In this document: positions 23,444-63,777 of the stretch, piece by piece | How positions within the stretch are numbered: the stretch's first letter is position 1 | Layout: each line of letters starts with the position of its first letter | Virus record (IMG/VR): IMGVR_UViG_2061766007_000848 | Source of the DNA: an uncultured virus (IMG/VR IMGVR_UViG_2061766007_000848) | Taxonomy: Duplodnaviria; Heunggongvirae; Uroviricota; Caudoviricetes | Length of the DNA: 64,000 bases | Strand: one strand, 5' to 3' | Notes under the pieces: generated by a model | What the model saw: only the letters and a program-made list of their open reading frames with translations | Told to the model about the DNA's origin: nothing | The model's database searches: none | Translations under genes and position numbers: made by a program

Positions 23444-25175
23444 TTATCGACTATAAATTGTTCCATATTTGCCGTTTTCCAACCCGATGTCGATACGTTC
23501 CGTTTCAACCTCATCAACTTTAACAGTTGCAAATTTACGTTGCATTTTTTCTAAATAAACCTGCTGACGAGACATAAAGAACCCGAAATTATCAATATCA
23601 ACTTTCCATTTGGAAACGTAACTCTTCCAATTCTTTGCTGTTATATTTTCTATCTTAAAGTCCTTTCCAAAATCAATGATATTGAAATAACTATAAGTCA
23701 CGTGGTCTTTATAGGATGTTATTTTTTCGTATCCATCAATGTATCTTTTGAACATCCCCCTTGAGACTTGTAACGTCGTAGTCCTTGTTACGCCATTCGC
23801 TGTTACGTCATAATTATTTGTTACAGCGTCAACATAAAATACCTCGCCCGAAAGGCAAACAAGCGTTCCTCGTTTTATTTTTCTATCGCCAACCATCGTT
23901 ATTGTACCTCTTCGGGTGAAAGGTGCGTATGCGTTGCTTTCAATTATGAACTTGAAGTCCCGAATAGCGTTTTGCCATATTCTATCGGCATTCATGCTAT
24001 TTTCGGGCTTTTCCGTATCGTGGCGTCCCGAAAATTCCCAATTGAAATAATTACTTTCAACGCATAGCGGACGGCTGCCCCAAACTGAAGCAAACTCTGG
24101 GAAAAATACGGCTGGAATTGCCGCTGTAAGTTGCTGACTGAATAGGTCGGCATATGGCATATACCTATACCACGAATAAATTCCCTGATTATTCCAGGCT
24201 AAACTTGTTGAATATACATCTTTTTCGGGAAGATACGTCATGGTCAAGTCTATCATTTTCAGGAACCCNNNNNNNNNNNNNNNNNNNNNNNATCCAATAA
24301 TACTGATTCCCGAAAGTATCACCCATGAATTCGACAAGCGGTTCCTGGCAAACTTTCTTAAAGTAGTTTAGCAATGAGCCTTGCTGAGTCGAAATTCCCG
24401 CATCCAGAACTTGTTTATCCGAAACGGAACTATCAATCAGCAACTTGGTTATTTGCCATATTCCAGGCGCAAGCCTTTCTTTGGCCGATGTTTTTTGTTT
24501 CTTTTTCTTTTTCGGTGGGTCACATTCGGTCAAATTTATTATTGTAAGGTCTTCTCTTCGGCTATAAGTATAAACTGACTGGTCTTTTAAATCAACATCC
24601 TTGAAAGATTTTATTGGCGTTACCGCTGGGTCAAATAGAACCCGATTATCTTCCTTGGCTACAACTTTATGGTTAGCCAAAAAATAAAATAGTGGGTCAA
24701 CGGCAACAACACCCCTACGAACCTCAAAATGTAAATGTGGTCCTTGAGAACTTCCCGCATTCGGTTGGTCCGTTGGGTCACCGCCAGTTGTTCCTATTCT
24801 GTCGCCTGCTTTTATTTGCTTTCCAACTACAATATTATCGTCAACCGAATGTAAGTGCATCATCAAAACATACACTCGCAAGCCAGTTGAAGCTGGTACC
24901 TCATCATCCTCTTCCTCTGGTACATCAGGCGGAATTGTAGCCCTTATTGAAACGAATTTTCCAGCCTTCCCCTCTTGGACTCTATTTTCCATAATGACGC
25001 CATCAATTGGGGCTTTTAGGACTGTTCCAACAGGAACTGCAATATCAATTCCATCATGCGGACTAATACCGCCCCGAATGTACCTTTTCCCGAAAAGACT
25101 TGAAATTGGCAACGTTTCGTAGCCTTGAAGAAAACCCTTGATGAAAGGTCTGTATGTGTAATTTTCTCTTGCCAT
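23444..25175 (-). CDS. Baseplate hub C-terminal part with an N-terminal M23 peptidase
   Basis: M23 motifs HDGIDI, MHL and GPHLHFEVR; hub-like RRGTITMVGDR.IKRG...FYVDAVT...TTLQVSRG. Joined across the N-gap 24269-24290. Confidence 0.75.
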
Positions 25176-35131: not shown

Positions 35132-36621
35132 TTACGCTTTCACTGTTTTGCCGATGTTGATGAAGCGAACCATCTTCTTCGGTGCATACAGGAACGGAGT
35201 ACCATACAGCAGCACCATGAAGCGGAAGGCAGGACTCAGCACAGCCAAATCCATTTTCATCAGCGGAGCCAATTGAGCAAACTCGACAACCTCGTTATCG
35301 AATTGGAACAGAATTGACTGGTCGCAATCAGGCAGGAATCGGTTCATATCGCGAATCAAACCTGCTGAACCGCCATCGTAGCCACGAGTTACGTCATCCA
35401 ACGATACCTCGAACAATGGGTAGAACTCGCCTGTTGCGGTACCACCTACTTTGGTACGATAGATGCGATAAGCGGTTGCCGGATTTACGCCACCACCATC
35501 AGCAAACTTCAGGTCAACAGCGCAACCTGCGGTTGCAGCAACAGCGGTGCTATAGATAGCCATATCCGACTCACCAAAGCGGTTGATTGCAACGACGCCA
35601 TAGTAAACGTTACCAGCATCGGTTGAACCCCACTTGCTACCAGCGACTGAACTTACAACGGCTGCCGGAGTTGACAANNNNNNNNNNNNNNNNNNNNNNG
35701 AGAAGTTGCAGCCGAAGCAGAAGTCTTGCTCGGAAGTTTCTTGAAGAAGACGTCATGGTTCAAACCGATGCGACCGAATTGCGAGTCAAATGCCTGAACT
35801 CGTTGACCCATGATACCATCGCTCAAACTTGGAGTGTTAGGAACGATGAACTTGTTGCCGTAGAAGTTCTTGACGAAAGCCGAAAGAACTGACGGAGGAC
35901 CATACAGCTGAGTTGCCAAGCCGTAATTCTCAACGATTGAGTTTGCGGCAGTTTCGATAGCGTCCTCAGTAAGTGCAGAACCACGGAGGTCAACTACCAT
36001 CTCAGAGTTCATGTAATCGGCATACGATGCCCAAGCATCAGATTGCTGTTGCTGTGCAAGGAATCCGTTGAATTGCTCGGGAACGATTTTCTCGTTGCCG
36101 AAATACAAACCCTGATTCAGTGTACGCAAAATCCAAAGAGTACCATCTTTCACGGCACGCTCCATTACCGAACCAATCATGGTGTTTACGAGGGTCATCT
36201 GGTGAGTTACGCTCTTGGTCACGCCAAGGTATTTCACCAACTGAGCCCTACGTACGAAGATTGAATCTTCCTCCTCCGGAAGTTCTCCCTCTCGGTTCCA
36301 GCCACCTCGATTAGCACCATAAGAAGTTTGCTGGTTGTACTCCTCTACAGTGTTGTACGCTGCCTTTTTCGGAAGGTCTTTCCAAAGGCGAATATCGCTC
36401 TCACGGAAGGTGATGTGCTTCAGAGTTTTCTCCAAAGATTCAACCTTCAACGGAGCACCCGACGCAGTGGTCAGGTTCGTAGTTTCACGACCAGTGATTT
36501 GCTCAGCAGCAAGAGCCTTGTTCAGTTGGTCAAGGTTTTCGCTACTCTGCATACCAGCGTGGAAACCATCTTGCTGAGCGGCATAGCCATAGTCAGCCAG
36601 ATTAATGCTCAAATTTTCCAT
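35132..36621 (-). CDS. Major capsid protein precursor (SPO1/Twort-like)
   Basis: LNKAL, GAPLKVESLE.TLK.ITF, AYNTVEEY, FNGF and LAPLMKMDLA...FMVLLYG...LYAPKK motifs. Joined across the N-gap 35678-35699. Confidence 0.92.
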
Positions 36622-36642
36622 GTTCACTTTGTTTTAAGATTA

Positions 36643-38207
36643 TTATTTAGTTATCTCAACGCCAAATTCGTTTTTCATACGAGCAATGATGTTCGCTGGA
36701 AGAACCTTACTTGCCTCAAAAGTCAAGCAAGCCTTGCTGAACTCTTCGTCAAATCCCTTTGCAAAGGTAGCCTGGTCAAGCATTTCTGCAACGGCATTCG
36801 GCTGTTTGCTCATAGAAATAGCATTCGTTCTTTTAGCGGTTTCGCCACCCTTGGTGATATCGCCATCCTCTGCTTTTGCAAAGCGACGTTCAACGGGACG
36901 TGCAGCGCTTAAAGATTTCGGGGCAGGAACCTCCGAACCAAATGCCTCCAACTTTTCAGACATTTCGCTAATAGTCTCTTCTTGAGCCTTAACAATGTCG
37001 AGCAATTCAGCTTCACGATTTGCTGCGGCTTCAAGTTTCTGACTTGCGTCTTTTACCATTACACCAAGAGCCTTGATGTATTTAGAATTCATCTGATGTG
37101 ACGTTGCAATCGCTTTCTCAATTCGGTCAAAACGATTTACGCCACCTTTCTTTACTTTGCCGTCCTCTTCATTCTCAACGTCAGCATCCTCTTCATTCTC
37201 TTCGGCTTTAGGCTCGTCGTCATCGGTTTCGTCACCCTCGTTGTCTTCAGCGTCGTCATCGGGTTCCTCATCCTCATAATCGTCATCCTCTGCTTTTTGA
37301 GTTTTTGATTTGCCTTTTTTGATAATTTCGTCGGCTTTGGGGTTGTCGGTTTTTGAACCACATCCCTTTTCGATATCAGCGATATCCATATCAAGCCCAA
37401 GAGCCTCATATGCCTTGCTAATATCTTCATCGGTTACTTTTTTTCGCCCACTCATATTCGCAATTTTTAAAATTAATGAATAAATTTTATCCGCTTTTTC
37501 AATACTTATACCTGGTACATCCTTGAAAACCCTTTCAACCACCTCTGCTTTTCCAAAAGTTTGATTTTTAAGTTTTTTGTCAACTGACTCTTTTTTCAAA
37601 GCAGCACCCGATTCAGTGTCCAAAGATTTTTCTTCTACCTCTACCTCTTCCTCCTCTTCGTCGTCAACATAATCATCAATTTCGCCTTTGATTATGTTAG
37701 CAAACGTTTTTGGATTTTTCGGTTGATGCGTAATGGCTACGCCTGTTATGATAGCCTTGTCGATTTTTTTGTAATCTGGAGAATTTACGTCATTCGATTT
37801 TCGTTTTACAACTTTTCCTTCAATCGAATAACCAAGCCGTCTGGTTTTGGAATTTTTCTCAAGCGTTTCGGCTAATTCCCAAACCTCTTGTGCTATTTTA
37901 CTTGATGGATAAAGTTCCGTTTCAATGTACAACCCCTCTGGACGAATTTCGGCTTTTGTAGGTTCACCAATAATAGCAGCAGGCTGTCCTTTTGCCTGGT
38001 GATGCCAGTTAACCATTCCATTTTCCAAAAGCGGTTTAATATCAAAGCCCTTGGGGTCAAGAAATTCTCCATCGGCATCTTCATCGGAAGTCGAAGCAAT
38101 GCCGCCTAACTTCATAATGGTTTCCCCANNNNNNNNNNNNNNNNNNNNNNNNNNNNNNNNNNNNNNNNCCAAAACGTAAATTTGTCTTCTAAATTCGTCT
38201 TTACCAT
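36643..38207 (-). CDS. Prohead protease fused to acidic scaffold
   Basis: GIAST...DADGE.LDP.GFD, NWHH, LGYSIEG and VAITHQPKNPKT motifs, then an acidic/coiled-coil C-terminus. Start MVKTNLEDKF at 38207. Confidence 0.88.
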
Positions 38208-38220
38208 ATTCCTTAAAAAT

Positions 38221-38252
38221 AAGAAAGGTCAAAAAGCAAAAGCCTTTTGACC
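38221..38252 (-). terminator. Hairpin/terminator abutting a late-promoter motif
   Basis: ggtcaaaaagc-aaaa-gccttttgacc stem followed by a T-rich tract on the minus strand. Confidence 0.6.
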
Positions 38253-38279: not shown

Positions 38280-38777
38280 TTAAAGAATTCCTATTCCGGC
38301 AATCATCATTATTACGCAGGCTAATTCAGCCCAGAACGTATAATGGTTGAATTTGTCGGCAAACAACGCTACCAGCCCCGCAATTCCACCTACCATTATA
38401 GGTATGAACATGCCGTTGATAATAAAAAATAATAAAGCCGACGCTGCCCAAATTCCAGCTGATGTAAAATGCGTTGCCTTTGTTAGTGTTTCTTTAAATG
38501 CACAAGCGCCACCGACAAAGCACATACCCGAAACGCTGGTGAATGCTAAAAATTGACACTTGTAAAATTCAGCTCTTGATACCCAATATATAAGTATCAA
38601 AATTCCTACTGCCCACATAACGAATGTGAACAGATATTTAGTCCCTACTTCCGCCCACTGATAGTAAGTGTCGGAAATGCTCTTTGGTACTTTCTTAAAG
38701 CGCCAAATTGTGAGCAACAAATAAGCGGTTATCAAAGCCACCGCTGCATAATAGAATGCTACCATAATTAAAACCAA
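38280..38777 (-). CDS. Multi-pass membrane protein
   Basis: About five hydrophobic helices, P.SISDTYY motif; follows the endolysin. Confidence 0.7.
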   Translation of the reverse strand: MVLIMVAFYYAAVALITAYLLLTIWRFKKVPKSISDTYYQWAEVGTKYLFTFVMWAVGILILIYWVSRAEFYKCQFLAFTSVSGMCFVGGACAFKETLTKATHFTSAGIWAASALLFFIINGMFIPIMVGGIAGLVALFADKFNHYTFWAELACVIMMIAGIGIL

Positions 38778-39238
38778 TTTATTTTGTTTTTACAATTCAG
38801 GTCGTCAACTCGTACATCAACATGAACCCAAGTGGGCGCCAACTCCTTCTTTTCCAAGCGTATCGGGTACGGAAGTTTGTTTTGGTTTTCCACTATCTTC
38901 GCACGCATTTCATCAGCCGTCATTTTTGGACTGCTGAAATCAAGAGCCTTGCCATTGTGTGCCAGCATATACAAAACGCCAGCGTCGGTTTTCTTCTTTA
39001 CTATTTCACATAGGTTTTCACGATAACCCCTTTGTTCAAGTGAACCGCCCGATGACCAATTGTTTACTATCATCGGAACCTTCAAAATATCCCTACGAAT
39101 TACAAGAACAGTTTCCAAAAGCCTGGAATCAAATTCACCCCAGGCCAATTCGCCCCTAATACCGAAAACTTTTCTTGAAACCAATTCTTTGATATTGAAA
39201 TACTTTTTCAACTTTAAAATAACTTCTTTGCGTTCCAT
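38768..39238 (-). CDS. Endolysin, peptidase M15-like
   Basis: YF.I.ELV, QRGYR, H..G.ALDF and WVHVDVR zinc-peptidase motifs. Confidence 0.8.
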   Translation of the reverse strand: MERKEVILKLKKYFNIKELVSRKVFGIRGELAWGEFDSRLLETVLVIRRDILKVPMIVNNWSSGGSLEQRGYRENLCEIVKKKTDAGVLYMLAHNGKALDFSSPKMTADEMRAKIVENQNKLPYPIRLEKKELAPTWVHVDVRVDDLNCKNKINWF

Positions 39239-39249
39239 AGTAGTAAGTT

Positions 39250-39606
39250 TTAATTGATTTCCAAATGTTCGGTTGTCATGCTGTTAGCGTTCAGGAACCT
39301 GACTAATTCGGTTACTTTCTCTGAACTATCCATTTTAAGGAATTTGTCCCAAATGCCATTGTATTTCAAAAATTCTTTGAAGCCGTTTTCGATAGCCTGA
39401 ATTTTCAAAGCCTTGTAAATAATGTTTTGAACCCATTCGGGAACTTGGTCAATGGTTTTAGTCGAAGCAACTTCATCATAATAGTCCTGTTCCAAAGCAG
39501 GGCTTAACAACGGGAACTTTCCCTTAAACGGAACCAGCTCGCTTGGTTTCTTGGCGCTAACTATTCCAAGAACCTTATTACCCAAATCAAATACTCTCTT
39601 TTCCAT
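39250..39606 (-). CDS. Hypothetical protein directly downstream of the kinase/ART gene
   Basis: 118 aa ORF, 7 nt after the stop of 39614..42094. Confidence 0.65.
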   Translation of the reverse strand: MEKRVFDLGNKVLGIVSAKKPSELVPFKGKFPLLSPALEQDYYDEVASTKTIDQVPEWVQNIIYKALKIQAIENGFKEFLKYNGIWDKFLKMDSSEKVTELVRFLNANSMTTEHLEIN

Positions 39607-39613
39607 GACCTTA

Positions 39614-42094
39614 CTAAATTGAAGTTACAATTTTACTACGATTCAAAATAATCGTAAACCCATGCCCTGAACTATTACCATCGGGCTGATAAATTCCATC
39701 ATATCCCTTCAAAGCGGCATAAATTCCAAGGTATGACTTATGGGAACCTGAATCCCTATATCCAAGGTTCTTGACAGCGTTGTAAATCCTCGAATAAATA
39801 TCCTTTGGATTAAGTTGCGCCATTTGGGTTTCTTTATTGTATTCATCCTCCTTGTCGTAATAAAGTTTCTTGGCATTATTAACTTTGGTATTCAGCTCCT
39901 GAGTCATTTTGCCGTTTTGAATTTCTTTTTCGGCAGCCGCATTTGCCGGACCAACGCAGTTTGTATTGAAGAACGTGGTAAACTTTTCAGCCTGGTAGTG
40001 ATATGGCGCTGTAAATTGATTCTTTTGTTTCACTGCATTATTATTCCATGAATATTTAGCAATGTAAAGTTCCCGATGACCGATTTTGATACGAACCGCC
40101 TCATCTTCCTTTCCTTGATTCAATAAATCAACCTTTCCGCCGCATTTTTCCACGCAAGGCTTAATGTGCTTCAAAACCGCTTCATCAAACATTGGATAGT
40201 TTCTATGACCTTGAGCATTTCGAGAGCCCCAATCAATGGTTCCTAAATAATCTGAAAGGTCAGCAACCGCCTCTTCGTCGTAGTGCATTTTAGAAAAAAC
40301 TGCTTGCTTAATAATATTGCTTGAATTCATTAAGTCAAGTTCTGCTTTCTTCCAATCCTTCCTTAAATCATCAAGTTCTTCTTTCAACTTTTTAATTTGC
40401 GGATTGCTAACAACCGACATGCCCATTGCCTTAATTTCGTCCAAAAGGTCTTCAGCGTTCACAATATTAGCACCTTTCTTCCAAAACATTTTAGCAACTG
40501 CGTCTTCATTTCCATGAGCATATCCCGTAGCGGATTCAGAACCCCGATAGGCTGCTGACGATTTCCAGTTCGTTTCGTTGCTGTTATTATCCGTAAGCGG
40601 TTTTGATTTAACAGTATCACTTCCCTTATTCGATACGTCATCTGAATGGGCGTAAATTCCTTGACCCCAAATTCCGTATTGACCAAAGTGGCAAAAGTCC
40701 GAAAACTTAAAGTCCTCCAAAAAAGAAACGCTGTCAAAGCCACGCATCATCAGAGGCCATTCAGTTGTCTTGCGTTGCTTCCAAAAGTCGCTTTCACTTA
40801 ACACCTCTGGTCTCGCATCAAAGCCCCTTTGCTTACAAATATTTGCAAGCAACGCCCAACCCTGGTCATCAGTAGCCGTCAAAATCGAATCACTGCTAAC
40901 CTTACAATTTGTTTGACTTTCGGTTTCGTCAAGCAATTCGGCAATTGTATCCTCATCTAATTCGGCATACATTTCATCTTCGGGCTTCAGCTGGCGTGGA
41001 AGAACCTTTCCTAATTTTGCCGCTGCTTTTTGAGCCTTAATGGCAGCCTGTCTTGAAATCTCATCGGAAATTTTCTTAAGATTATCGAAACGCTGACCCA
41101 TTATTATCGCCAGGGAATCCTCACCAATTTCTCTAAGGTAGTTAACAACGTCATCTTTCTTGTTAAGAAGTTCCTTGATTTGATTTAATTGCCCATCATC
41201 GGTCAACTGCATAGCAATACCTGGATTATATTTTTGCATACTTTTCCAAGTACTGTAAACGTCGCCATCAAAGGTTTTCTTACTACCTTGCGCTCTGTAG
41301 TCTAAACAACCGCCATTATCAACACGAATTACTTCACCATTAGCGTTTTTAATCAAACAGTTGTCATTCTGATAAACATCCCAGTTGGCAATTAAGACAT
41401 CGGCAATGAAGCCCTTTGACATGTTAGCAAAATCAGAAGACGTTGGAGCGTGCGTTCCCGGAATAAATCGGCTCAAAAGAACCGCCTCACCATTATCGTC
41501 ATAAAGTTCATAATCGGGTGTTTTCAACCCCATTATTCCATACAACTGATTGGATAGATATTCGGCTTTTACATGGTCCGAATTAGTATTGCTGCCCTTC
41601 TTAAGAACGTACTGATTTCCATCAGCATCCTCGACTAATTTTGCGCCTGTCGAACCGCCTAAAGTTTTCACAACCTTCAATGTGCTCAAATCATTAGGAA
41701 ATAGGTCGTTAACATACGCTTGTTTGCCTTGTATGCTTTGGTCGCTTAATTTAGCACCTCGTCCTATTTCGGCTTGTGTCTTTTGACCTTTCCTTACTAC
41801 GTGCCAATCGTACTGAATTTTTGAACCTACCTTTGTAGCCGAATAAACATAAAGAACGCCATCGACTACCTTTGTTTGACCTGGAACAATCGCCTTTGCT
41901 ATTTCTTTGTCTTGCTCTACTTCATTAATAGCGTCAATACAAGATTTAGCGACTATTATTTCATAGTCATAGTTTTCAACAAGCCCCTTTTGAATCTTGT
42001 AATTATTGCACGCTTTTATCAGCGTATCAATAGAACAATCGCCCTGGAGTTGAGCCAAAGCGATTGTGTCCAACGATTTTCTCAGTTTGTCCAT
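39614..42094 (-). CDS. Putative virion-packaged effector: leader + PI3/4K/HipA-like kinase + ADP-ribosyltransferase-like domain
   Basis: Kinase motifs LGGSTGAKL, YVLK, AEYLSNQLY, ANWD....DN and RVDNG. ART-like motifs MRG, GIWGQGIY, A.GYA and GYDGI....IILNRSKI. Confidence 0.7.
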   Translation of the reverse strand: MDKLRKSLDTIALAQLQGDCSIDTLIKACNNYKIQKGLVENYDYEIIVAKSCIDAINEVEQDKEIAKAIVPGQTKVVDGVLYVYSATKVGSKIQYDWHVVRKGQKTQAEIGRGAKLSDQSIQGKQAYVNDLFPNDLSTLKVVKTLGGSTGAKLVEDADGNQYVLKKGSNTNSDHVKAEYLSNQLYGIMGLKTPDYELYDDNGEAVLLSRFIPGTHAPTSSDFANMSKGFIADVLIANWDVYQNDNCLIKNANGEVIRVDNGGCLDYRAQGSKKTFDGDVYSTWKSMQKYNPGIAMQLTDDGQLNQIKELLNKKDDVVNYLREIGEDSLAIIMGQRFDNLKKISDEISRQAAIKAQKAAAKLGKVLPRQLKPEDEMYAELDEDTIAELLDETESQTNCKVSSDSILTATDDQGWALLANICKQRGFDARPEVLSESDFWKQRKTTEWPLMMRGFDSVSFLEDFKFSDFCHFGQYGIWGQGIYAHSDDVSNKGSDTVKSKPLTDNNSNETNWKSSAAYRGSESATGYAHGNEDAVAKMFWKKGANIVNAEDLLDEIKAMGMSVVSNPQIKKLKEELDDLRKDWKKAELDLMNSSNIIKQAVFSKMHYDEEAVADLSDYLGTIDWGSRNAQGHRNYPMFDEAVLKHIKPCVEKCGGKVDLLNQGKEDEAVRIKIGHRELYIAKYSWNNNAVKQKNQFTAPYHYQAEKFTTFFNTNCVGPANAAAEKEIQNGKMTQELNTKVNNAKKLYYDKEDEYNKETQMAQLNPKDIYSRIYNAVKNLGYRDSGSHKSYLGIYAALKGYDGIYQPDGNSSGHGFTIILNRSKIVTSI

Positions 42095-42107: not shown

Positions 42108-44163
42108 TTATCCTATAAGCAATTTCTCCGCATCCTCAAGCGAAAGGTCTCCAAAGTCAAGGAACATTTCTGCTTTTTTGGTTTCTTTATAAGTTTCACC
42201 GAATAGGTAGGCATCCACGCTATCCTCACCATAAAGAATTTTGTATTTCTTTGGGTCTTTCTTTTTCAGTTCTTTTTTACGCTTCAGGAATTCCTCCTTT
42301 TCCTTAATTCTTCCCTCCTCCGAAAAATCATCATTCAACGCTTTTTCGAGGTCATAGTCATCAGCCTTAATTAAGTTCAAAGCCTGAATTTGCCAAGGCA
42401 CGTTTGTACCAACTTGAACCGAACCATTAATTGTTCGGGCGCCAGTAGAACCGCCCTTTGAGATTTTCGGACCAATAAGCGATACCAGCTGAATGAAAGT
42501 ACGTGGTGTGAATTTTGCTGGGTCAGCGTCGTCGAGATTTTCCTCCAACCAATCCCTTGCCATATCACGAATTTCCATCTGCTCTTTTTCGGTTGGGAAC
42601 TGCTTTTCAAACGCTTTTTGATAACTACCTAAACCCATAGTCTTGTAGCGTTTGTTTATCAAGTCCATACTTTCGGCTCTCGTAAACGCCATATCGTTTA
42701 CCAAACCACGGCTCATGATAGCCTTTGCATCCTCACTTGCGTTAGTGATAGCGGCTACATNNNNNNNNNNNNNNNNNNNNNNNNNNNNNNNNNNCGTTTT
42801 TGCCTGTTTGCGGATTCATGAAAATTCGGTTCTTTGGATTATTGTCCGTAATTTTCTTCATCAAAGCCTTCATTGGCCCTGATTTCGTTGTAAGAATTTT
42901 ATCCGAATCATCGAATACAAGAATTCTTGGATGTTCGTCGCCGTTGTCGTCAGTATAGGTTCCATTGAACTTTGCTAACATTTTTCGGAAGTCAAGTTCA
43001 TCGTCTGGGTCAGAAAGCATTACATAACCCCAATCTTTGTTGCTTGCATTATCTTCATCATCCAACTTTTTCACATTCAAGTAGTCGGCTATTGCTTCCC
43101 AGCCATAAGTCTTACCTGCACCAGCACCGCCTGCCGAAACAAACAGCGGAGCCGTATCATATTTGATGAAATTTTCGTATTGCTCATTTAGCAAACCGAT
43201 TTTGTTATCTGGATTCAAATAGCCCGCAGTTGTCGGTTCAAAATAGGTTTTGAAAGCGTCATACTGCTGACGGTCATTCAAAGTTTTGAAGTCGTGGAAT
43301 TTACTACGAATTCGTGGGTCGTTCTTATTCAACCAACCTAAATCACCCTCTGGAAATTCCTTCATGAATTCTTCGGGATTTAAGCCCTTGAAATCAATGT
43401 TGATTGAAGGTGCCTCATCAGCATTGTAAGTGGCTTTCATAGCCTCCTTTAAGTTATGCTTGCGCTCTCTCGATTTCCATTCTTTTTCCAAAGTTCCCGC
43501 AACATCAATATCTTTTTCATCAATACCACGAGCAGCTGCCTCTTCGTATGCAAGTTGGCGGTTTTGCCAAGTGTAGTTTTGGTTATTCAAAACTTTCAAA
43601 AGGTCGGCATCCGATTTTCCCGCATAAAGTGTACGCAGTTTTGAAGCCGATGCTGTATGGTTTTCCAAAACGCCATTGGCACCCATTTTACGGACAACCC
43701 AATTTTCGGGAACCTCAAATTCAACAGAAGGCTTTTTTGTTTGGTACGTAACTTTTGCTGTCGGTTTAGGTACGTAACCGCCCTGAAGGTCTGAGCTGTC
43801 AACTTTTGTTTTGTCGTAGTCGTCACGCCCTTTCAAAGCATTGAAAGCAATTTGACGAACAGCCGAATCAAGTTTCTTATCGTTAACAACTTTTTCAAGC
43901 GAACCTGTCGTAGCATTTTGTGCATAGTCGGCAAGTTCATCGGGTGTCATATCCTCAAAATTTTTCGGGGAAGTAGTTTGAGTTGGCGCTGAAGTCGGTT
44001 TCGGTTTTTGAGCAGCTGGAGCCGCATTGCCACCGCCTTGGCTTTGATTCTTTTTTATTCCACGCCAATCGAATTTTCCTGGAGCGTATTCAGTCCATAC
44101 TAACTTTCCGTTTGGGTGCATATCACCCACTTGGTGCTGAGCCTTTTGAAATTCTTCCAACAT
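42108..44163 (-). CDS. Putative virion-packaged protein: leader + helical repeats + AAA+ ATPase
   Basis: Walker A GGAGAGKT, Walker B ILVFDDSD and Arg-finger-like AIMSR. ORFs 42742..44163 and 42108..42716 join across an N-gap (VAAITNASEDAKAIMSRG). Confidence 0.72.
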
Positions 44164-44210: not shown

Positions 44211-45664
44211 TTAATCCGTTTCCCATTCAATTGGTAGTTCTATGTCATAAAAATCTTCCATTATCTCTTTTGTTATTCTTTTTACGTTTTCGGAATCCTT
44301 CCCTTTTTCAAGTTCCTTGATTGCTTTTCTACCACCCTTTGCTAACCGAATAATTTCTTCGGCATTTTTGGTTGCATTGAATAGTTCGTAAACCAACTCA
44401 AAGTTATGCTGCGTATCTTTCAAGAATTTAGTCGGTGACATTTGCATTGCTTTCTTCAGCGCCTTTGCGAATTGCTTTGGCGTTGCATCCCATGGAATAA
44501 TTATTGCTCGAATGTTTTCAAATAGTGGGTCGTATATTTCCTCGTCAGCCGTTTTAGCAAGCCCCCTATAATCGCGCAAAACAGGATATGCTCCAGATAG
44601 CATTGCTTCGATGATGAAGCCGTTTATATGCGTCCGGCAATATTGAGCGTAATGCTCCGCCCAGGATGGGTCAATCGCAAATTTTGTATTCTTTAAGGTT
44701 TCGATGACTTCACCGCCCGACATTTGCCCCATATATTCCATTCCAAATTTTTCGGCTCTTTTCCAAAGCGAAATTTTGCCGTCAAGTTTTTCGGGAAGGT
44801 CTGGGTCACGCTTCAAAGTGCACATATAATTACTTTTTGTTTTAGTTTCGCTGGTCATGTAGTTGTATTCAATTCCTGTACCAGCAATCTTAACTTTAAA
44901 GCGTTCTTCCTCGCCCTTTTGGATATACGGAACAGCGGCAATCAATTCTTCCATATGCTTCATAGATTTAAACATATGGGCGGCAAAGAAGTCTTCCGAA
45001 CGTTTATTCATCATTTTGACGGGCATTTTAGCCTTATTCGGAAAATATCGTGGATTGAGTAGCAAAGTCCTCGGAATTCCTATTTCAGCGCAACACTGAT
45101 AGGCTGCTAAATNNNNNNNNNNNNNNNNNNNNNNNNNNNNNNNNNNNNNNNNNNNNNNNNNNNNNNNNNNNNNNNNNNNNNNNNNNNNNNNNNNNNNNNN
45201 NNNNNNNNNNNNNNNNNNGAAGGCAAATCAAAAAATTTCCACCAAAAGTCGAATTTAAAACCTTTCTTGTCCCAAGACGAACTTTTGGTCGGCATGAAAT
45301 TCCAAAGAATAATATCCGCATCCTTAACAAGTTCCTTCCAGCGCTCAACCGAATTTTTTTCATAGACGCCAATTCGATTAGATGGTGGAAGAAAATAGCC
45401 GTAATAATTATTGCGCCAATAGCCCGTCACCTCATCTTTTTCATACCCGCCAGCCTGGGAATGAAATTTGATTTTACGCTGATGTTCACCGCTTTCAAAT
45501 TCCTTAACTTTTTTATCATAAACTTTTTGCGTAGTTGATGACGGGGTCATTTGGGCTACATCTACATCGTGTCCCAAATCCCGAAACGCTTTCAACATAC
45601 TTGCAACATACTCGACAATTCCGCCATATTTGGCAATCTGAAAATCGGCTATAAAAATTTTCAT
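44211..45664 (-). CDS. GT-B (GT4-like) glycosyltransferase
   Basis: N-terminal MKIFI......YGGI.......AFRDLGHDVDV and C-terminal IDPS...GFIIEAMLSGAYPV. Joined across an N-gap. Confidence 0.78.
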
Positions 45665-54142: not shown

Positions 54143-55816
54143 TTTCTTCGTTATTTAACATGTTATCAAATGCTTTTATGAATGCTTCTTTCAAGCCACC
54201 CTTTTCTTCCTCGTCTTCACCGCCCTCTTCTGAATAGTTATCAAATGGGTTGCTGCCACCCTCTTCCTCGTCTTCGGAAACGTATAAGTCAAACGGATTT
54301 CCACCGCCTCCGTCAAAACCGCCCATTCCGCCACCCATACCAGCCTGTTGCTGTTGCATGGCTTCAGCGTTTTTGTTTTGGATTAAGGTCGGGTTGCTTG
54401 GGATGTCGCCAAAGTCCAAAGGCTTCATTTCGTACTTCTCACGTGCCTCGTTGACGGTCATGAAGCAGTTAACTTTCTTGATATCCATTTCAAGTTCTTC
54501 CTGGATTGACATGCCGTTCAAGCCCATAAATACGAATTCAAAATCAGGGTTGATTTGCTCGACAATGTACTTGTTTATTTTACGCTGAAGGAATTTCAGC
54601 ATAGGGTACAAGCCCTTGTCCTTGGAGTGCTGCAAACGTTCCTTTTCGCTGCCCTCGAATAAACCACCATTGCCGCTTGACCTACTTATATCCCAACCGA
54701 TTTCCGATGGGTCAATTGAATAAANNNNNNNNNNNNNNNNNNNNNNNNNNNNNNNNNNNNNNNNNNNNNNNNNNNNNNNNNNNNNNNNNNNNNNNNNNNN
54801 NNNNNNNNNNNNNNNNNNNNNNNNCATTGCTGTTTAAACTGCTGAAGAGCTGCTTCGTTATTATTGCCTTTCACTCTTAGCAATCCTTTCGGGGCAGAAC
54901 CCTGACTGAAGAACCGCCTATTGTACTCATCGCCCCAAAGCATTGATGTTACAACGTTGATAAGTTCTTCAAGTTCTGAACAGCCGTAGCCGTTAGCGAA
55001 GATTGAAGTTGACGGGTTCCGGATACCAAAGCACAATTCCCAAGGATAGAATTCATTGACTTTTGCGTTCTGGTACACTTGAACGTATGACGGATAATAG
55101 CCATGAATTTTCTTTCCAAATTCGGCTCTATCCTGCCAAACTGCAGCACCTTCTCGTTTGAAAAATGCGTTATCATAATCCTTGTCGAAATATGAATCAG
55201 CAATCCGGAAGGTTGCGGCATCCGTAGCGATAAAACTTTCCAATTGGCCTCTTCGGTTGCGAATACACTCAAAGGTCATCTGGTCATATGTTAGTGAGTC
55301 GTCAACAATTTTACGAATAAAAGTATCAAAGTCGTCATGCCCCCAATCGTTAACATTTCCACCCTTCAATAGAAAATCCGTAATGGCGAAGGCAATCTTT
55401 TTATCCTTTGTATCCATTTTTTGTTCAACCCCGAATTTTGGCTTTTTCCGAATAACAAAGCCCGTTGAATATTTGTTTTCCTGGGGTTCTGCATAATCCG
55501 CCACCTGATTTTTTCTGGTCTTAATAATCGAATTAATGATGGGTGTTTTCGACATTCTTTTCAATGTCGTATAAGTTAACGAAAAAGCCTTATCCTTGTA
55601 ACCCAAGTTTGCGTTGAATTCCAATGGGTCTATAAAAAATGCTTTCGGGTTCTGCTCTACTGCTTTTGATTGTAATTGCTGAAACACCTGGGTCGCCTTG
55701 ACCATATCTTCAGGTGAGTCTGAGCGCAAGGCTTTTTCAAGCGTGCGGAATCTTTTCGCTTTTAATTTTGCCTCCGCAAGAGTAAGTGCGTCCAATTGTT
55801 TTGCGTATGATTGCAT
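54129..55816 (-). CDS. Portal protein (SPO1/Twort-like)
   Basis: IIKTRKNQV, DSLTYDQ, NGYG.SELE, FFSQGSAPKGLL, IDPSEIG, SKDKGLYP.L.F and TVNEAR motifs. Joined across an N-gap. Confidence 0.93.
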
Positions 55817-56561: not shown

Positions 56562-56888
56562 TTATTTATAACTGTTTAGCCTGTTCTCGATTTTCAAGGC
56601 GACGTCGTTATCAAACAAAATGTACTGAATACCTAAAATATCATGAACAACAACCGCTTCACTTAAATACTCAAACAAGGTAGTATTATCATCAAAGGAA
56701 GTTATTTCGGTTCCTTCCTGATGAATTTCCTTGACTAATGAGTCGAAAGCATCAATCAGCGTAGCGTCAGACATCATATCCCTGGAAAGGCATTTCATGT
56801 CCGTTACCGATGTGTCAAGTTCACATGCTATAAGTTGAAGGTCTATTCCAAGAGGCTCCTTGAGCGTTGTAACTTTTTTTGAAATCAT
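56562..56888 (-). CDS. Hypothetical protein
   Basis: 108 aa ORF overlapping the upstream stop (ATGA). Confidence 0.6.
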   Translation of the reverse strand: MISKKVTTLKEPLGIDLQLIACELDTSVTDMKCLSRDMMSDATLIDAFDSLVKEIHQEGTEITSFDDNTTLFEYLSEAVVVHDILGIQYILFDNDVALKIENRLNSYK

Positions 56889-58014
56889 GATACAATAATT
56901 TTTTTAGTTCTTGGTTTAAATTTACTGCGCTGTTTTCCTTCCCCAATAGTCATCTTCCAATACTTTTGGAATTCGCAAAGCCACATTTCAATCTGGTGCA
57001 ATGTTATGTTGCATTTCCACGATACGTAATATTCACGCTTGGCCTTGTTCCAATATAGGTATGGAAAACTTGCGCCTTTCTCTTCGGCAATAGTTAGCAA
57101 CCATTCTTTTGCCATGTCACGTAACTTATAAATTGCCGGAAGTTGCTTTTGCGCCGTTGAAAGGTTAGGAAATATCAACCTAATTCCTACGCTTGCTCCA
57201 GGACCAACGTTTGTGAAATCGTTTTGGTCAAATTTCATAAACTTCTCACCCCGATATTTTTCAATGTAGGTGAAGTCCTGATAAAATTCGTGGGCTATAA
57301 AAGCCGCAACCCCTGGAATGGTTTCCAGCCATTTGATAATTTCTTCGGGCTTTTCGGCTTTCTGAACAACGCTAATCAACTCGTCAACGTGGTCATGTAA
57401 ATAAGGTATAATCTTCCTGGTGTAGCAATAGTCCCTTGGCATACCAGGCGTGGCCATAGAGTTGATTAAGTAAGCGGTGGTGAATGGGTTCTGTCCTGAA
57501 CTACGTACCCCCGCAATGAAACGGCTGAATTCTTCCTCGTCGTACTCTTCCCAATCCGGAATTCCATTCTTCCATTTCTTCGCGGATATAAGTTCCTCAC
57601 CCCCGAATAAACTCATTTGTACATTCTTTTTAGATGGGTCAAATTCAAAGGTTTCGGGGCAATTGAAGAAACGAAATACCATCATCTTCCAAATCAAGTT
57701 TCGCAAATCAAGCGTTTCATCCAAAATGATGTTTTTGATTTGCCACTGACTATTTCGGTCTAAATCCCGATAGACGTTTGTGAACTTTGATTCCTGGAAA
57801 ATCTTGTTATCCGTCCAAGGTCTTTCCTTCTTATCAATGAACCTACGTTTCCAAATCATTTGGCGTTCATACATCGTTTCAAAAAATAGCCGTAAGTGCG
57901 GCTGATAAACCTCCANNNNNNNNNNGATAGTAAGTTCGTAAACAGGTGCACCCAGAGTTACAATGTTTTGACCGCCATACAAGTAGCAATCGTATTCNNN
58001 NNNNNNNCAAACAT
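56885..58014 (-). CDS. 5-hmdU DNA kinase helical domain (aGPT-Pplase1-like), DNA base hypermodification
   Basis: FF..MYERQ.IW.RR......PWTD..IFQ..KFTNVYR.LDR.SQW, FRFFN..ETF, FT.AY, GPGA..G and IE.WLCEF.KY motifs. Start uncertain (ATG at 58014 before the gaps). Confidence 0.8.
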
Positions 58015-58336
58015 AATTTAATGTTTTTGTATTTACACGAATTTTGAATTCACGTTTTGCTTCCAGGTTCCCCTTGGCTAAAAGTTTTAGCAGAACCGCT
58101 TTTTTCATTTTTCTAAAAGGTCGGTTTGCCGAATTAAACAACCTCACTCTTCTAACATCCAGGTTGCAAATCTGCGGTTTGCCGCTTGTATAAAACTTTC
58201 CGCAAATGTTAGTTATGACCATAGGGCAATAATCATTTCCATGAAAGCCTATTATCTTAAAAAGCGTGTTGCCCCAAATACTATCTTCAGAGTCCCGAAT
58301 AATGTCACCTGTTTTGAAATAATTCTGTATCGGCAT
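58015..58336 (-). CDS. Hypothetical protein
   Basis: N-terminal ~107 aa of ORF 56885..58336; appears fused only through N-gaps. Confidence 0.5.
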
Positions 58337-61181: not shown

Positions 61182-61475
61182 TTATATGTTCAAAATTAAG
61201 TTTCCCTCTGATGCTAATTTTGCCAACTGCTTTTCTATCGGTGTTCGACAAACAAAAATAATTTTCTTGCCCTGGGCTTTTGCGGCTTTGCTCCAGGCAG
61301 AAGTTAGCGTCTTGAACCGCTTATCCGCCGAATAAAAATCATAGTCTGAAACGGCAATTTCATACCAAACATGGGTCATGGGGGAATTACCTGCTTTATA
61401 TGCAAAGGCAATCACCCCCTCGTTCATGGTTTCAACTTTCTTAATTATTCCAAAGACAAAATTTTCAATTTTCAT
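61182..61475 (-). CDS. Hypothetical protein
   Basis: 97 aa ORF overlapping the upstream gene end. Confidence 0.6.
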   Translation of the reverse strand: MKIENFVFGIIKKVETMNEGVIAFAYKAGNSPMTHVWYEIAVSDYDFYSADKRFKTLTSAWSKAAKAQGKKIIFVCRTPIEKQLAKLASEGNLILNI

Positions 61476-62019
61476 TTGTTAGCAATTTTAGATGCACCCT
61501 TTCATCAGCTGTTAACTTTGCTAACAATTGTAATGCAATTTTGATAGTCGTAGTTTCGGGGAGTTTCAAAAGCCTTTGTGAAATTTTTTCATAAAAAGCA
61601 ATGGTATCCTCTTCCGCCTTAATAGCGTTTTGAATTGCTTCCTCCTTTGTTTTGCCTATCACTACAGCGCTGTTGTTGAACTTTTGGTCAATTTTTCCGC
61701 CTATTCTACGAATAAAATCACCCAATTTGTCATAGTGTTTCATTTCGGTCATGGCTATTCCTAACATCAATTCACCGATTTCCTCAAAGGTTGCTTCCTG
61801 AGAAGTGTACATGTGAATTGCCGTAAGTTCTGAAAAGCCGTTACTGCCGTTGTAAACAGGATAAAACCATTCCGCCATTACCCCATCATCTTGTTTTGCC
61901 TTATTGAATTCTGGGTATTCAACCGTTGAATCCGAATAGCGCATAGCGTTAACCAACCCATTGGTCAAGTCGTCAAGTTGATTTTTCGTAAGCGGTTTTT
62001 TGATTGCAAAATTTTCCAT
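61465..62019 (-). CDS. Ferritin-like di-iron protein (rubrerythrin/bacterioferritin-like)
   Basis: Ligand pattern E(LTAI.MY), EMKH, E(EDTI.FY), ERVH. Confidence 0.8.
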   Translation of the reverse strand: MENFAIKKPLTKNQLDDLTNGLVNAMRYSDSTVEYPEFNKAKQDDGVMAEWFYPVYNGSNGFSELTAIHMYTSQEATFEEIGELMLGIAMTEMKHYDKLGDFIRRIGGKIDQKFNNSAVVIGKTKEEAIQNAIKAEEDTIAFYEKISQRLLKLPETTTIKIALQLLAKLTADERVHLKLLTNEN

Positions 62020-63120: not shown

Positions 63121-63777
63121 TTAAACCCTGTTGTGATTAGGTTCTTTTAAACCCCTCTTAACTTCACTCAAATGCCGTCTTTGCTCTTCAGTCCAACGCT
63201 TTCCATAATTTGGATTTTTATCCCCAATGTATCTGCCCTTCATTTTTTCTGACTGTTTACGTTTTTGTTCTTCAGTCGCAGGAACCCCTTTGTTATGCGA
63301 TGGTCTTCCTAAACTTTTCTTTCTCATTTTATCCCTTGTTTCTTCTGAATGCTTTCGCCCTGTAAATGTTCCAGGGTGTGTTTTAAAATATTCTTTCATT
63401 ATTTCAGATTGACGCTTTTTATATTCAGGGTTTTGAGTTGTTTGCCTATTTTTAATAGTCATTTTTTCAATCACTTCAGGCAATTTAGCAGGATTGTATT
63501 CCGAAGTGTTTACGTCGCCGTCGGCTATATTGTAACCAATGTTTTTATCTTGGGAATGATACTTTTTTATGTAAACATATTCCCAAATACGTAACTCATG
63601 AAGCGTTTTGCAGCGCCTTAAAATCTCGCGTTTGAAATTTTCTTTACCATGCTTTTTCAAAGCAAATTCAAAAGCGGTTCCGCTACCTAAATAACCATCG
63701 TTTTCATCACCCTCATGTTTTCCAATATAAATTTTACCATTGGTTAAACATGTTGTTTTGTAAATAAAACCTATCAT
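63121..63777 (-). CDS. GIY-YIG homing endonuclease with NUMOD3 repeats (Seg-like)
   Basis: FIYKTT...NGKIYIGKH...YLGSG and GYNI motifs; HSEETR.KM, TEEQK.K.S and WTEEQR..LS repeats. Confidence 0.9.
   Translation of the reverse strand: MIGFIYKTTCLTNGKIYIGKHEGDENDGYLGSGTAFEFALKKHGKENFKREILRRCKTLHELRIWEYVYIKKYHSQDKNIGYNIADGDVNTSEYNPAKLPEVIEKMTIKNRQTTQNPEYKKRQSEIMKEYFKTHPGTFTGRKHSEETRDKMRKKSLGRPSHNKGVPATEEQKRKQSEKMKGRYIGDKNPNYGKRWTEEQRRHLSEVKRGLKEPNHNRV

Follow-up and report, generated by a model that had tools for sequence, protein, structure and literature searches.

Can a single protein encoded among the head genes of a phage combine two different host-modifying enzymes? The question is raised by an 826-residue open reading frame (ORF) at positions 39614-42094, minus strand, of the uncultured-virus record IMGVR_UViG_2061766007_000848, whose 64,000-nucleotide stretch of DNA was analysed here and is called the window throughout. 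An initial annotation of this DNA had read the ORF as a PI3/4K/HipA-like kinase fused to an ADP-ribosyltransferase (ART)-like domain, and had proposed a tightly linked gene of 118 residues (g118) as its inhibitor or partner. The reading towards which we lean is that the phage is of Bacteroidota type, contractile-tailed and of the provisionally named 'Gratiaviridae' kind, and that the ORF encodes a host-modifying protein with two enzymes, expressed late.

The ORF is open throughout, begins with ATG and contains 0 masked bases. All of the motifs named in the initial annotation were found in the protein: GGSTG (146-150), K165, E178, D239..N243-D244-N245 ('NWDVYQNDN') and D259-N260-G261 in the first half, and MRG (450-452), 'GIWGQGIY' (474-481), 'GYDGI' (797-801) and 'IILN' (815-818) in the second. 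Homologues of similar length numbered 246 at E<=1e-3, on contigs of up to ~126 kb, and 29 full-length homologues, 30-75% identical to the window protein, were aligned to assess conservation. Invariant in this alignment were K165, E178, D232, N237, D239, N243, D244, N245, N260 and G261 in the first half, where GGSTG and D259 were at least 90% conserved, and R423, G424, F425, R451, G452, G479, Y481, Y525, G790, A793, A794, G797, D799, N818, R819 and K821 in the second half. The motifs are thus conserved and not a matter of chance. The protein, its parts and the linked gene are laid out as follows.

39614..42094, minus strand: the 826-residue ORF (P0001), comprising N-terminal helices, kinase, linker and split ART-like domain; 74 IMG/VR loci keep the gene order
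41885..42094, minus strand: residues 1-70, a three-helix N-terminal region (AlphaFold2 helices 3-16, 22-36 and 42-56) without a Pfam family
41030..41872, minus strand: residues 75-355, a protein-kinase-like domain (core ~130-355) whose N-terminal extension is beta-rich
40883..41029, minus strand: residues 356-404, a linker with helices in the AlphaFold2 model, variable in the 29-sequence alignment
40427..40882, minus strand: residues 405-556, forming the ART-like core's N-terminal half, with 'RGF' (423-425), R451-G452, 'IYAHS' including Y481, and Y525
39740..40426, minus strand: residues 557-785, an insertion in the ART-like fold, modelled by AlphaFold2 as an antiparallel hairpin of long helices plus one small alpha/beta subdomain
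39617..39739, minus strand: residues 786-826, forming the ART-like core's C-terminal half, with 'GIYAALKGYD' including D799, then 'ILNRSK'
39250..39606, minus strand: g118, 118 residues, starting 7 nt past the stop of the 826-residue ORF; without a known family; a candidate partner, inhibitor or chaperone

Searches with the sequence of the 826-residue protein gave no significant match in Pfam, PHROGs or PADLOC. The sole row for the whole protein, Pfam Ead_Ea22 (E 0.015), was below the cut-off and fell on the helical insert, and PDB searches by sequence and by profile returned coiled-coil noise and nothing else. A tblastn search of 50,697 deposited phage records matched residues ~124-294, in the kinase module, and found the full-length protein in none of them.

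The kinase half was recognised from its predicted structure. The AlphaFold2 model of residues 1-400, made from a 53-sequence alignment, had a predicted local distance difference test score (pLDDT) of 88.2 and a bilobal protein-kinase-like fold. A Foldseek comparison, which the initial annotation had suggested for residues ~130-340, was run with this model against the PDB and gave at least 500 hits at E<1e-3; among the matches listed, 45 of 45 were kinases or kinase complexes. On re-alignment with VIA, Helicobacter pylori CtkA (3akk_A) came top (13.6; 207 residues aligned, root-mean-square deviation 4.0), followed by 7vkb_A (11.8), which is the Legionella HipT-HipS complex (PMC9325769), actin-fragmin kinase (1cja; 11.8), RIOK1 (10.4), WaaP (9.8) and VPS34/PI3K (~9-10). 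By the Foldseek and VIA results, sugar and lipid kinases also belong to this fold. Since the matches are HipA-family, actin-fragmin and PI3K kinases, the label PI3/4K/HipA-like is correct at the level of fold.

Pfam models of the HipA family scored below their gathering thresholds, with HipA_2 at E 0.017 (14.8 bits; cut-off 27) and HipA_C at E 0.028 (14.5 bits; cut-off 30.5); weak matches to HipA_C were seen in 13 of 47 family members and to HipA_2 in 6 of the 47. The protein further differs from HipA, HipT and CtkA (3AKK, 7VKB) in its catalytic loop, 'DVYQNDN', in having no HipB or HipS homologue here, and in its phage head-module setting. The catalytic residues were invariant in both the 29- and the 53-sequence alignments, and the conservation of the Lys-Glu pair, the D239...N243-N245 loop and D259-N260-G261 argues for a kinase that is predicted to be active, with residue roles assigned by position. 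S148-T149 in the glycine-rich loop is conserved in at least 90% of the sequences. It is a candidate regulatory site, because HipA and HipT autophosphorylate in this same loop (PMC9325769).

The C-terminal half was modelled separately. For residues 400-826 AlphaFold2 gave, at a pLDDT of 93.2, an alpha/beta core into which two helical hairpins of great length and a small alpha/beta subdomain are inserted, with core strands at model residues 50-53 and 81-85 in its N-terminal half and at 401-404, 413-417 and 423-426 in its C-terminal half. The ARTs of polyvalent proteins, as set out by Iyer 2017 (PMC5512222), carry a histidine in strand 1, a tyrosine in strand 2 and an aspartate in strand 5. In our model R451 closes the first core strand ('MMRG'), Y481 lies in the second ('GQGIYAHS'), and D799 stands directly before the strand 'GIYQ'. 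The strand-2 tyrosine motif, 'G.GIY', is present, with G479 and Y481 invariant and in the strand at model residues 81-85, and there is an acidic residue at the start of strand 5, the invariant D799, just ahead of model strand 401-404. R451, Y481 and D799 stayed invariant in 32 sequences that included 14 distant relatives.

Two kinds of profile and embedding comparison point the same way. The language-model neighbours of residues 405-560 were headed by ART-PolyVal (0.86, 0.86 and 0.85), followed by the Exotoxin A catalytic domain (0.83) and Arr (0.82), and those of residues 766-826 included a cluster with 15% AcrIF11_ADP_ribosyl (0.87) and a cluster with 20% ART-PolyVal (0.78). When the core was compared by hhalign with an ART-PolyVal profile built from a 120-sequence alignment, P ranged from 4e-4 to 1.2e-2 and the probability from 4 to 34%, the best P being 4.4e-4 at 34%; the alignment, although of low confidence, was collinear and placed R451 on the histidine, Y481 on the tyrosine and D799 on the aspartate. 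The likeness to ART-PolyVal (PF18760; the Tox-ART-HYD2 clade as described in PMC5512222) extends to the strand-2 tyrosine, the strand-5 aspartate and the motif 'GYD.[IL]..Q', and to a C-terminal position in multi-effector phage proteins that also carry the kinase module (P0166, P0216 and P0238). The differences are the arginine in place of the strand-1 histidine, the insertion of ~210-230 residues, and the lack of a match to the Pfam model. AcrIF11 (PDB 6KYF) uses an aspartate (D115) as its catalytic acid, as the domain is predicted to do, and has a variable helical segment in the region that corresponds to the insertion site of the 826-residue protein. A comparison with ADPrib_exo_Tox (a 14-sequence profile) gave P 0.2-0.57 by hhalign and so showed no similarity of the core to the R-S-E ARTs.

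Several results weigh against an ART in the C-terminal half. The histidine at the end of strand 1 is absent, and the arginine that takes its place, invariant in 29 and in 32 sequences, sets the protein apart from the H-Y-D set. The language-model scores that name ARTs are all <0.9, which the tool rates as leads only. The best of the hhalign negative controls, NUDIX, gave P 2.5e-3 to 6e-3 and so overlapped the ART-PolyVal range, and adding the 14 distant relatives to the family profile made the ART-PolyVal signal no stronger; because the control is comparable and the broader profile brought no gain, the hhalign line is not significant alone. No Pfam ART family was found on the 826-residue protein or on its C-terminal half, where hmmscan had no PF18760 match at E<=10, none among 47 relatives in the 25 most-matched of 196 families at E<=5, and the PF18760 model matched 0 of five related phage records at E<=10. 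The Foldseek comparison suggested in the initial annotation for residues ~440-826 was run with the 400-826 model and came out negative: the PDB search had 0 hits at E<=1e-3, and no ART was among the 47 matches listed. A VIA search of 48,161 chains returned the helical hairpin in all of the best 50 matches, and a BFVD search yielded one homologue and nameless phage proteins at E 1e-3 to 6e-2, to which tblastn with P0166 added no name.

What survives of the earlier ART-like assignment is its plausibility, which comes from the residue positions, the language-model neighbours and hhalign; it has neither a Pfam match nor a significant Foldseek match in the PDB. Four weak lines nevertheless converge on a probable diphtheria-toxin-like ART fold, and we are reasonably confident that the C-terminal half has it. 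ART catalysis is predicted with less confidence than the fold, because a set of R, Y and D has not been described. In the R-S-E ARTs, according to Iyer 2017 (PMC5512222), NAD is bound by an arginine at this point of strand 1, and R451 in an ART active site is therefore not implausible.

The long helical insert reported in the initial annotation is real, with long helices over residues ~565-761 of the protein in the 400-826 model. The insertion amounts to ~210-230 residues of coiled-coil and alpha/beta structure and splits the ART-like core between strands 4 and 5, its helices lying at model residues 166-220 and 301-362 and its strands at 255-280. The hairpin drew 50 of the 50 best matches in one VIA search and 49 of 50 in another. 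In the distant relative P0182 the insert is far shorter, at ~87 residues. The insert is a possible target-recognition module.

Relatives of the kinase half proved to be numerous. In an exhaustive search with phmmer the cluster representatives numbered 3225 at E<=1e-3, 1324 at E<=1e-10 and 50 at E<=1e-30, and beyond the 826-residue family the best-matching stretch was nearly always residues ~95-350, which is the kinase module. We scanned with Pfam 91 of the listed proteins of at least 560 residues that share this module (35 + 56; 11 further long ones were left out). Capsid-anchor domains were present in 42 of the 91 (Phage_Mu_F in 34, a portal domain in 7 and Phage_min_cap2 in 1), so that in these proteins, with their MuF, minor-capsid or portal domain, the module is physically part of capsid-internal proteins. 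A recognised ART, usually C-terminal, was found in 18 of the 91 (ADPrib_exo_Tox in 15, ART-PolyVal in 3); NUDIX occurred in 7 and RelA_SpoT in 1, and the C-terminal domain of the 826-residue family was also present in 15. The cultured phages Aeromonas ST4 and Pseudomonas Dolphis encode proteins of 1177 and 1222 residues, annotated as ARTs, that contain the kinase module. The kinase module is a widespread cassette, often joined to capsid anchors and recognised ARTs, and these fusions share the theme of the polyvalent proteins of Iyer 2017 and the MuF toxins of Jamet 2017, as those two papers present them. Iyer 2017 (PMC5512222) also describes a polyvalent-protein kinase clade with a lost C-lobe; the word 'kinase' occurs 0 times in Jamet 2017 (PMC5576092).

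Two very large proteins stood out among the relatives. P0142 (3416 residues) was matched by the query over five stretches, best on the kinase module, and has Pfam matches to HipA_C, HipA_2, APH and ADPrib_exo_Tox. In P0152 (3130 residues) the kinase module is accompanied by a tyrosine phosphatase, by NUDIX and by an SH2 domain (E 1.7e-10), the last being unusual in a protein of this sort.

Where the gene lies bears on how its product would reach a host. The 826-residue gene stands in the head block, between the portal and the prohead protease and major capsid protein, and gene order is kept in the 74 related IMG/VR loci for which synteny was counted by tblastn; the gene encodes two effector-type domains, the kinase and the ART-like domain, alongside head genes. 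The genes around it in the window are all on the minus strand, and those identified are given here.

54686..55816, minus strand: portal (phrog_15361, E 8e-38), upstream of the 826-residue gene
44211..45065, minus strand: glycosyltransferase-like gene, 284 residues (Glyco_trans_1_4 and Glycos_transf_1, E ~5e-4, below curated cut-offs), in 47 of 74 loci
42742..44163, minus strand: 473-residue gene with a P-loop-like 'GGAGAGKT' and no Pfam family, in 71 of 74 loci, at the position of the 'AAA-family ATPase' of Benler 2021
42108..42716, minus strand: g202, a variable upstream gene of 202 residues without a family, in 15 of 74 loci
36643..38232, minus strand: prohead protease/scaffold (phrog_1028 head maturation protease, E 3e-36), downstream, in 64 of 74 loci
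35132..36627, minus strand: major head protein (PHROGs), broken by a masked run

In the order of transcription the genes run from the glycosyltransferase-like gene through the 473-, 202-, 826- and 118-residue genes to an endolysin-like gene, a membrane-protein gene, the protease and the head protein. The endolysin-like (phrog_894) and membrane-protein genes (38280-39238, minus strand), which lie between g118 and the protease, were matched in 0 of 74 loci, and because these two lysis-type genes are so restricted, the site that they occupy would seem to take variable cassettes. The 202-residue protein shares the hexapeptide 'GGSTGA' with the glycine-rich loop of the kinase; a kinship on this ground was rejected as being at chance level (BLASTP E 0.35). 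There are 41 runs of N in the window (for example 35678-35699, 38129-38168 and 42761-42794), and they interrupt many genes, including those of the major head protein, the protease and the 473-residue protein; none falls in the 826- or the 118-residue gene.

With a tail sheath and a baseplate wedge identified by PHROGs, and a head protein that shares ~45% identity with its counterparts in Bacteroides phages DAC16-DAC23 and SJC03 and is a more remote relative of those in SPO1-like phages, the window is that of a Bacteroidota-type contractile-tailed myovirus. The 'Gratiaviridae' of Benler 2021 (PMC8008677; Microbiome 9:78) are described there as contractile-tailed phages with predicted Bacteroides or Parabacteroides hosts and ferritin-like genes, in which the gene for a HipA-family kinase, distantly similar to HipA, lies between those of the portal and the major capsid protein, the genes of an ATPase and a glycosyltransferase coming immediately upstream. 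The window matches this layout, the likeness being one of gene order in which the glycosyltransferase is assigned from below-cut-off Pfam matches and the ATPase from a P-loop motif.

Packaging in the capsid and ejection of the 826-residue protein are likely, as a putative property, because its gene lies in the head block and relatives of its kinase module are fused to capsid anchors. T4 Alt and the MuF toxins offer a parallel: as described in Jamet 2017 (PMC5576092) their genes accompany head genes, the capsid takes up these enzymes and ejects them along with the DNA, many of them are ARTs, and a small downstream ORF is common. Alt, however, belongs to the R-S-E ARTs and has a capsid-targeting sequence that is cleaved, by the account in PMC5512222, and no such sequence was found in the 826-residue protein, and MuF toxins carry a MuF domain, which this protein lacks. 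Other findings also count against delivery. Pfam identified no MuF, portal or minor-capsid domain in the protein, residues 1-125, compared by hhalign with a MuF alignment, showed no match (P 0.052), and the kinase-module proteins of ST4 and Dolphis are not in head modules. Benler 2021 (PMC8008677), moreover, reads this same locus as a late-acting superinfection-immunity module.

By tblastn, g118 was directly downstream of the 826-residue gene in 69 of the 74 related loci; of the five without a match, three end inside the 826-residue gene, and at one locus (L073) a 138-residue ORF in the position of g118 shares the motif 'LIPFK.KFP' and is a diverged copy. Eight positions were invariant among 28 sequences: P26, F27, G29, P32, F76, L80, K97 and L115. 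These data establish g118 as a genuine, strictly co-conserved gene. It had no match in Pfam, PHROGs, PADLOC or, by profile, the PDB; a profile search recovered 81 relatives, of which 0 had a precomputed Pfam family and the few that bear a name are called 'hypothetical protein', and there was no similarity to the 165-residue gene downstream of the kinase-ART protein of Aeromonas ST4. The small protein HipS blocks the ATP site of the HipA-like kinase HipT (PMC9325769), and in Jamet 2017 small ORFs are reported after 89.4% of MuF toxin genes (PMC5576092); these two precedents make an inhibitor or immunity role for g118 reasonable. The lack of any detectable likeness to a known inhibitor, immunity or antitoxin family speaks against it. 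By analogy, g118 is probably a direct partner, either an inhibitor that silences the enzyme in the producing cell or an assembly chaperone, and the chaperone role stands on a par with the inhibitor or immunity role.

Taken as a mechanism, the reading towards which we lean would run as follows. The protein would be made late, alongside the head proteins, would be taken into the capsid and ejected together with the DNA, and would act as the next infection begins. In its HipA/CtkA/PI3-4K-like kinase domain (~130-355) the Lys165-Glu178 pair would anchor ATP, D239...N243-D244-N245 would form the catalytic loop and D259-N260-G261 would bind metal, and the kinase would most likely phosphorylate a host protein on Ser/Thr. 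The second domain (~440-556 and ~786-826) would be a diphtheria-toxin-like ART of the Asp-acid branch that uses an R-Y-D set (R451, Y481 and D799) to ADP-ribosylate host proteins, with the insertion selecting the target. The g118 protein would keep the enzyme silent in the producing cell as its inhibitor, or else would serve as an assembly chaperone.

Other accounts of the locus differ in where the protein acts and in how much of it is an enzyme. In the late intracellular module proposed by Benler 2021, the kinase stays unpackaged and works with the ATPase-like and glycosyltransferase-like genes to modify the envelope, or another non-protein substrate such as a sugar or lipid, and blocks superinfection. 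This would suit a fold that also takes in sugar and lipid kinases. The module's common fusion to capsid anchors and recognised ARTs, however, favours its being delivered along with the DNA over its acting late inside the cell, and we consider this account unlikely. It is similarly improbable, in our judgement, that the kinase is the only enzyme and that the C-terminal half, whether ART-like or some other alpha/beta fold, is non-enzymatic and serves binding, oligomerisation or capsid targeting, with the hairpin as its main feature. The missing Pfam and significant Foldseek ART matches, R451 in place of the canonical strand-1 histidine, an hhalign signal not above that of the best control, and the dominance of the hairpin in every structure search would all be expected if that were so. 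Yet R451, G452, G479, Y481, Y525, D799 and N818-R819-K821 do not vary even at ~25% identity, nor in relatives whose insert is much shorter, and such invariance is typical of an active site rather than of a scaffold. Independent ART leads exist as well, and an arginine in strand 1 is, as noted, a normal NAD-binding residue in another ART class (PMC5512222).

The close pairing of the two genes invites a further account, in which the 826-residue protein is a growth-arresting toxin of the polymorphic-toxin type and g118 its immunity protein, acting in abortive infection, exclusion or competition between lysogens and not in host takeover. The small size of g118, its position 7 nt downstream and its strict co-conservation accord with this, as do the neutralisation of HipA-family kinase toxins by small proteins (PMC9325769) and the small ORFs that follow MuF toxin genes (PMC5576092). 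But no lysogeny genes were seen in the scanned parts of the window, the gene sits inside the structural block of a phage of ~95-125 kb, no PADLOC defence family was matched, and g118 is unlike any known immunity or antitoxin family. We regard a toxin-immunity pair as very unlikely. The two-enzyme reading in its strongest form, namely a virion-delivered bifunctional kinase and R-Y-D ART that acts on host targets upon entry, with a coiled-coil, target-selecting arm and a dedicated 118-residue inhibitor unrelated to HipS or to known immunity proteins, belonging to a module that would constitute a major unrecognised class of ejected phage kinases, is one that we hold as doubtful.

Elsewhere in the window, a 483-residue protein (56885-58336, minus strand) matches Pfam HMUDK_hel, the helical domain of 5-hmdU DNA kinase (E 9.4e-46); this match suggests, from sequence, a hypermodification of thymidine in the phage DNA. 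Between this gene and that of the kinase lie several genes, glycosyltransferase-like or of unknown kind. A ferritin/rubrerythrin-like protein (61465-62019, minus strand; E ~1e-6) fits the ferritin-like enzymes of the 'Gratiaviridae', and its gene adjoins a homing-endonuclease-like gene with GIY-YIG and NUMOD3 (63121-63777, minus strand). In the tail/baseplate region, a 328-residue protein with Peptidase_M23 (24189-25175, minus strand; E 1.4e-15) is probably a virion-associated cell-wall hydrolase. Of the DnaG primase and DnaE polymerase, looked for as further 'Gratiaviridae' features, the 64-kb window gave only a weak Toprim match for the primase, and DnaE was not seen.

Part of this picture has been published. 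Benler 2021 (PMC8008677) described both the HipA-like kinase that these phages encode and the genes around it, and Iyer 2017 and Jamet 2017 present multi-effector, capsid-delivered phage proteins with ARTs and kinases as a general idea. The main text of Benler 2021, in which 'ADP-ribosyl' occurs 0 times, proposes late superinfection immunity and contains neither an ART nor a 118-residue companion. In the literature searched we did not find the ART-like second domain of this protein with its R-Y-D set and insertion of ~210-230 residues, how widely the kinase module occurs on anchors of the MuF and portal kinds, or the conserved 118-residue companion.

The phage protein kinases studied so far are few; Benler 2021 (PMC8008677) counts two as characterised, T7 gp0.7 and 933W Stk, and the kinase of this gut-phage group has been published as a possible superinfection-immunity factor. 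Our analysis indicates that the same polypeptide holds another domain, ART-like and probably catalytic, whose residue set is unusual and whose insertion is very large. If true, this would be an instance, open to testing, of two host-modifying chemistries joined in a single delivered protein, in phages from a dominant gut phylum, and would extend the sequence definition of the Asp-dependent ARTs.

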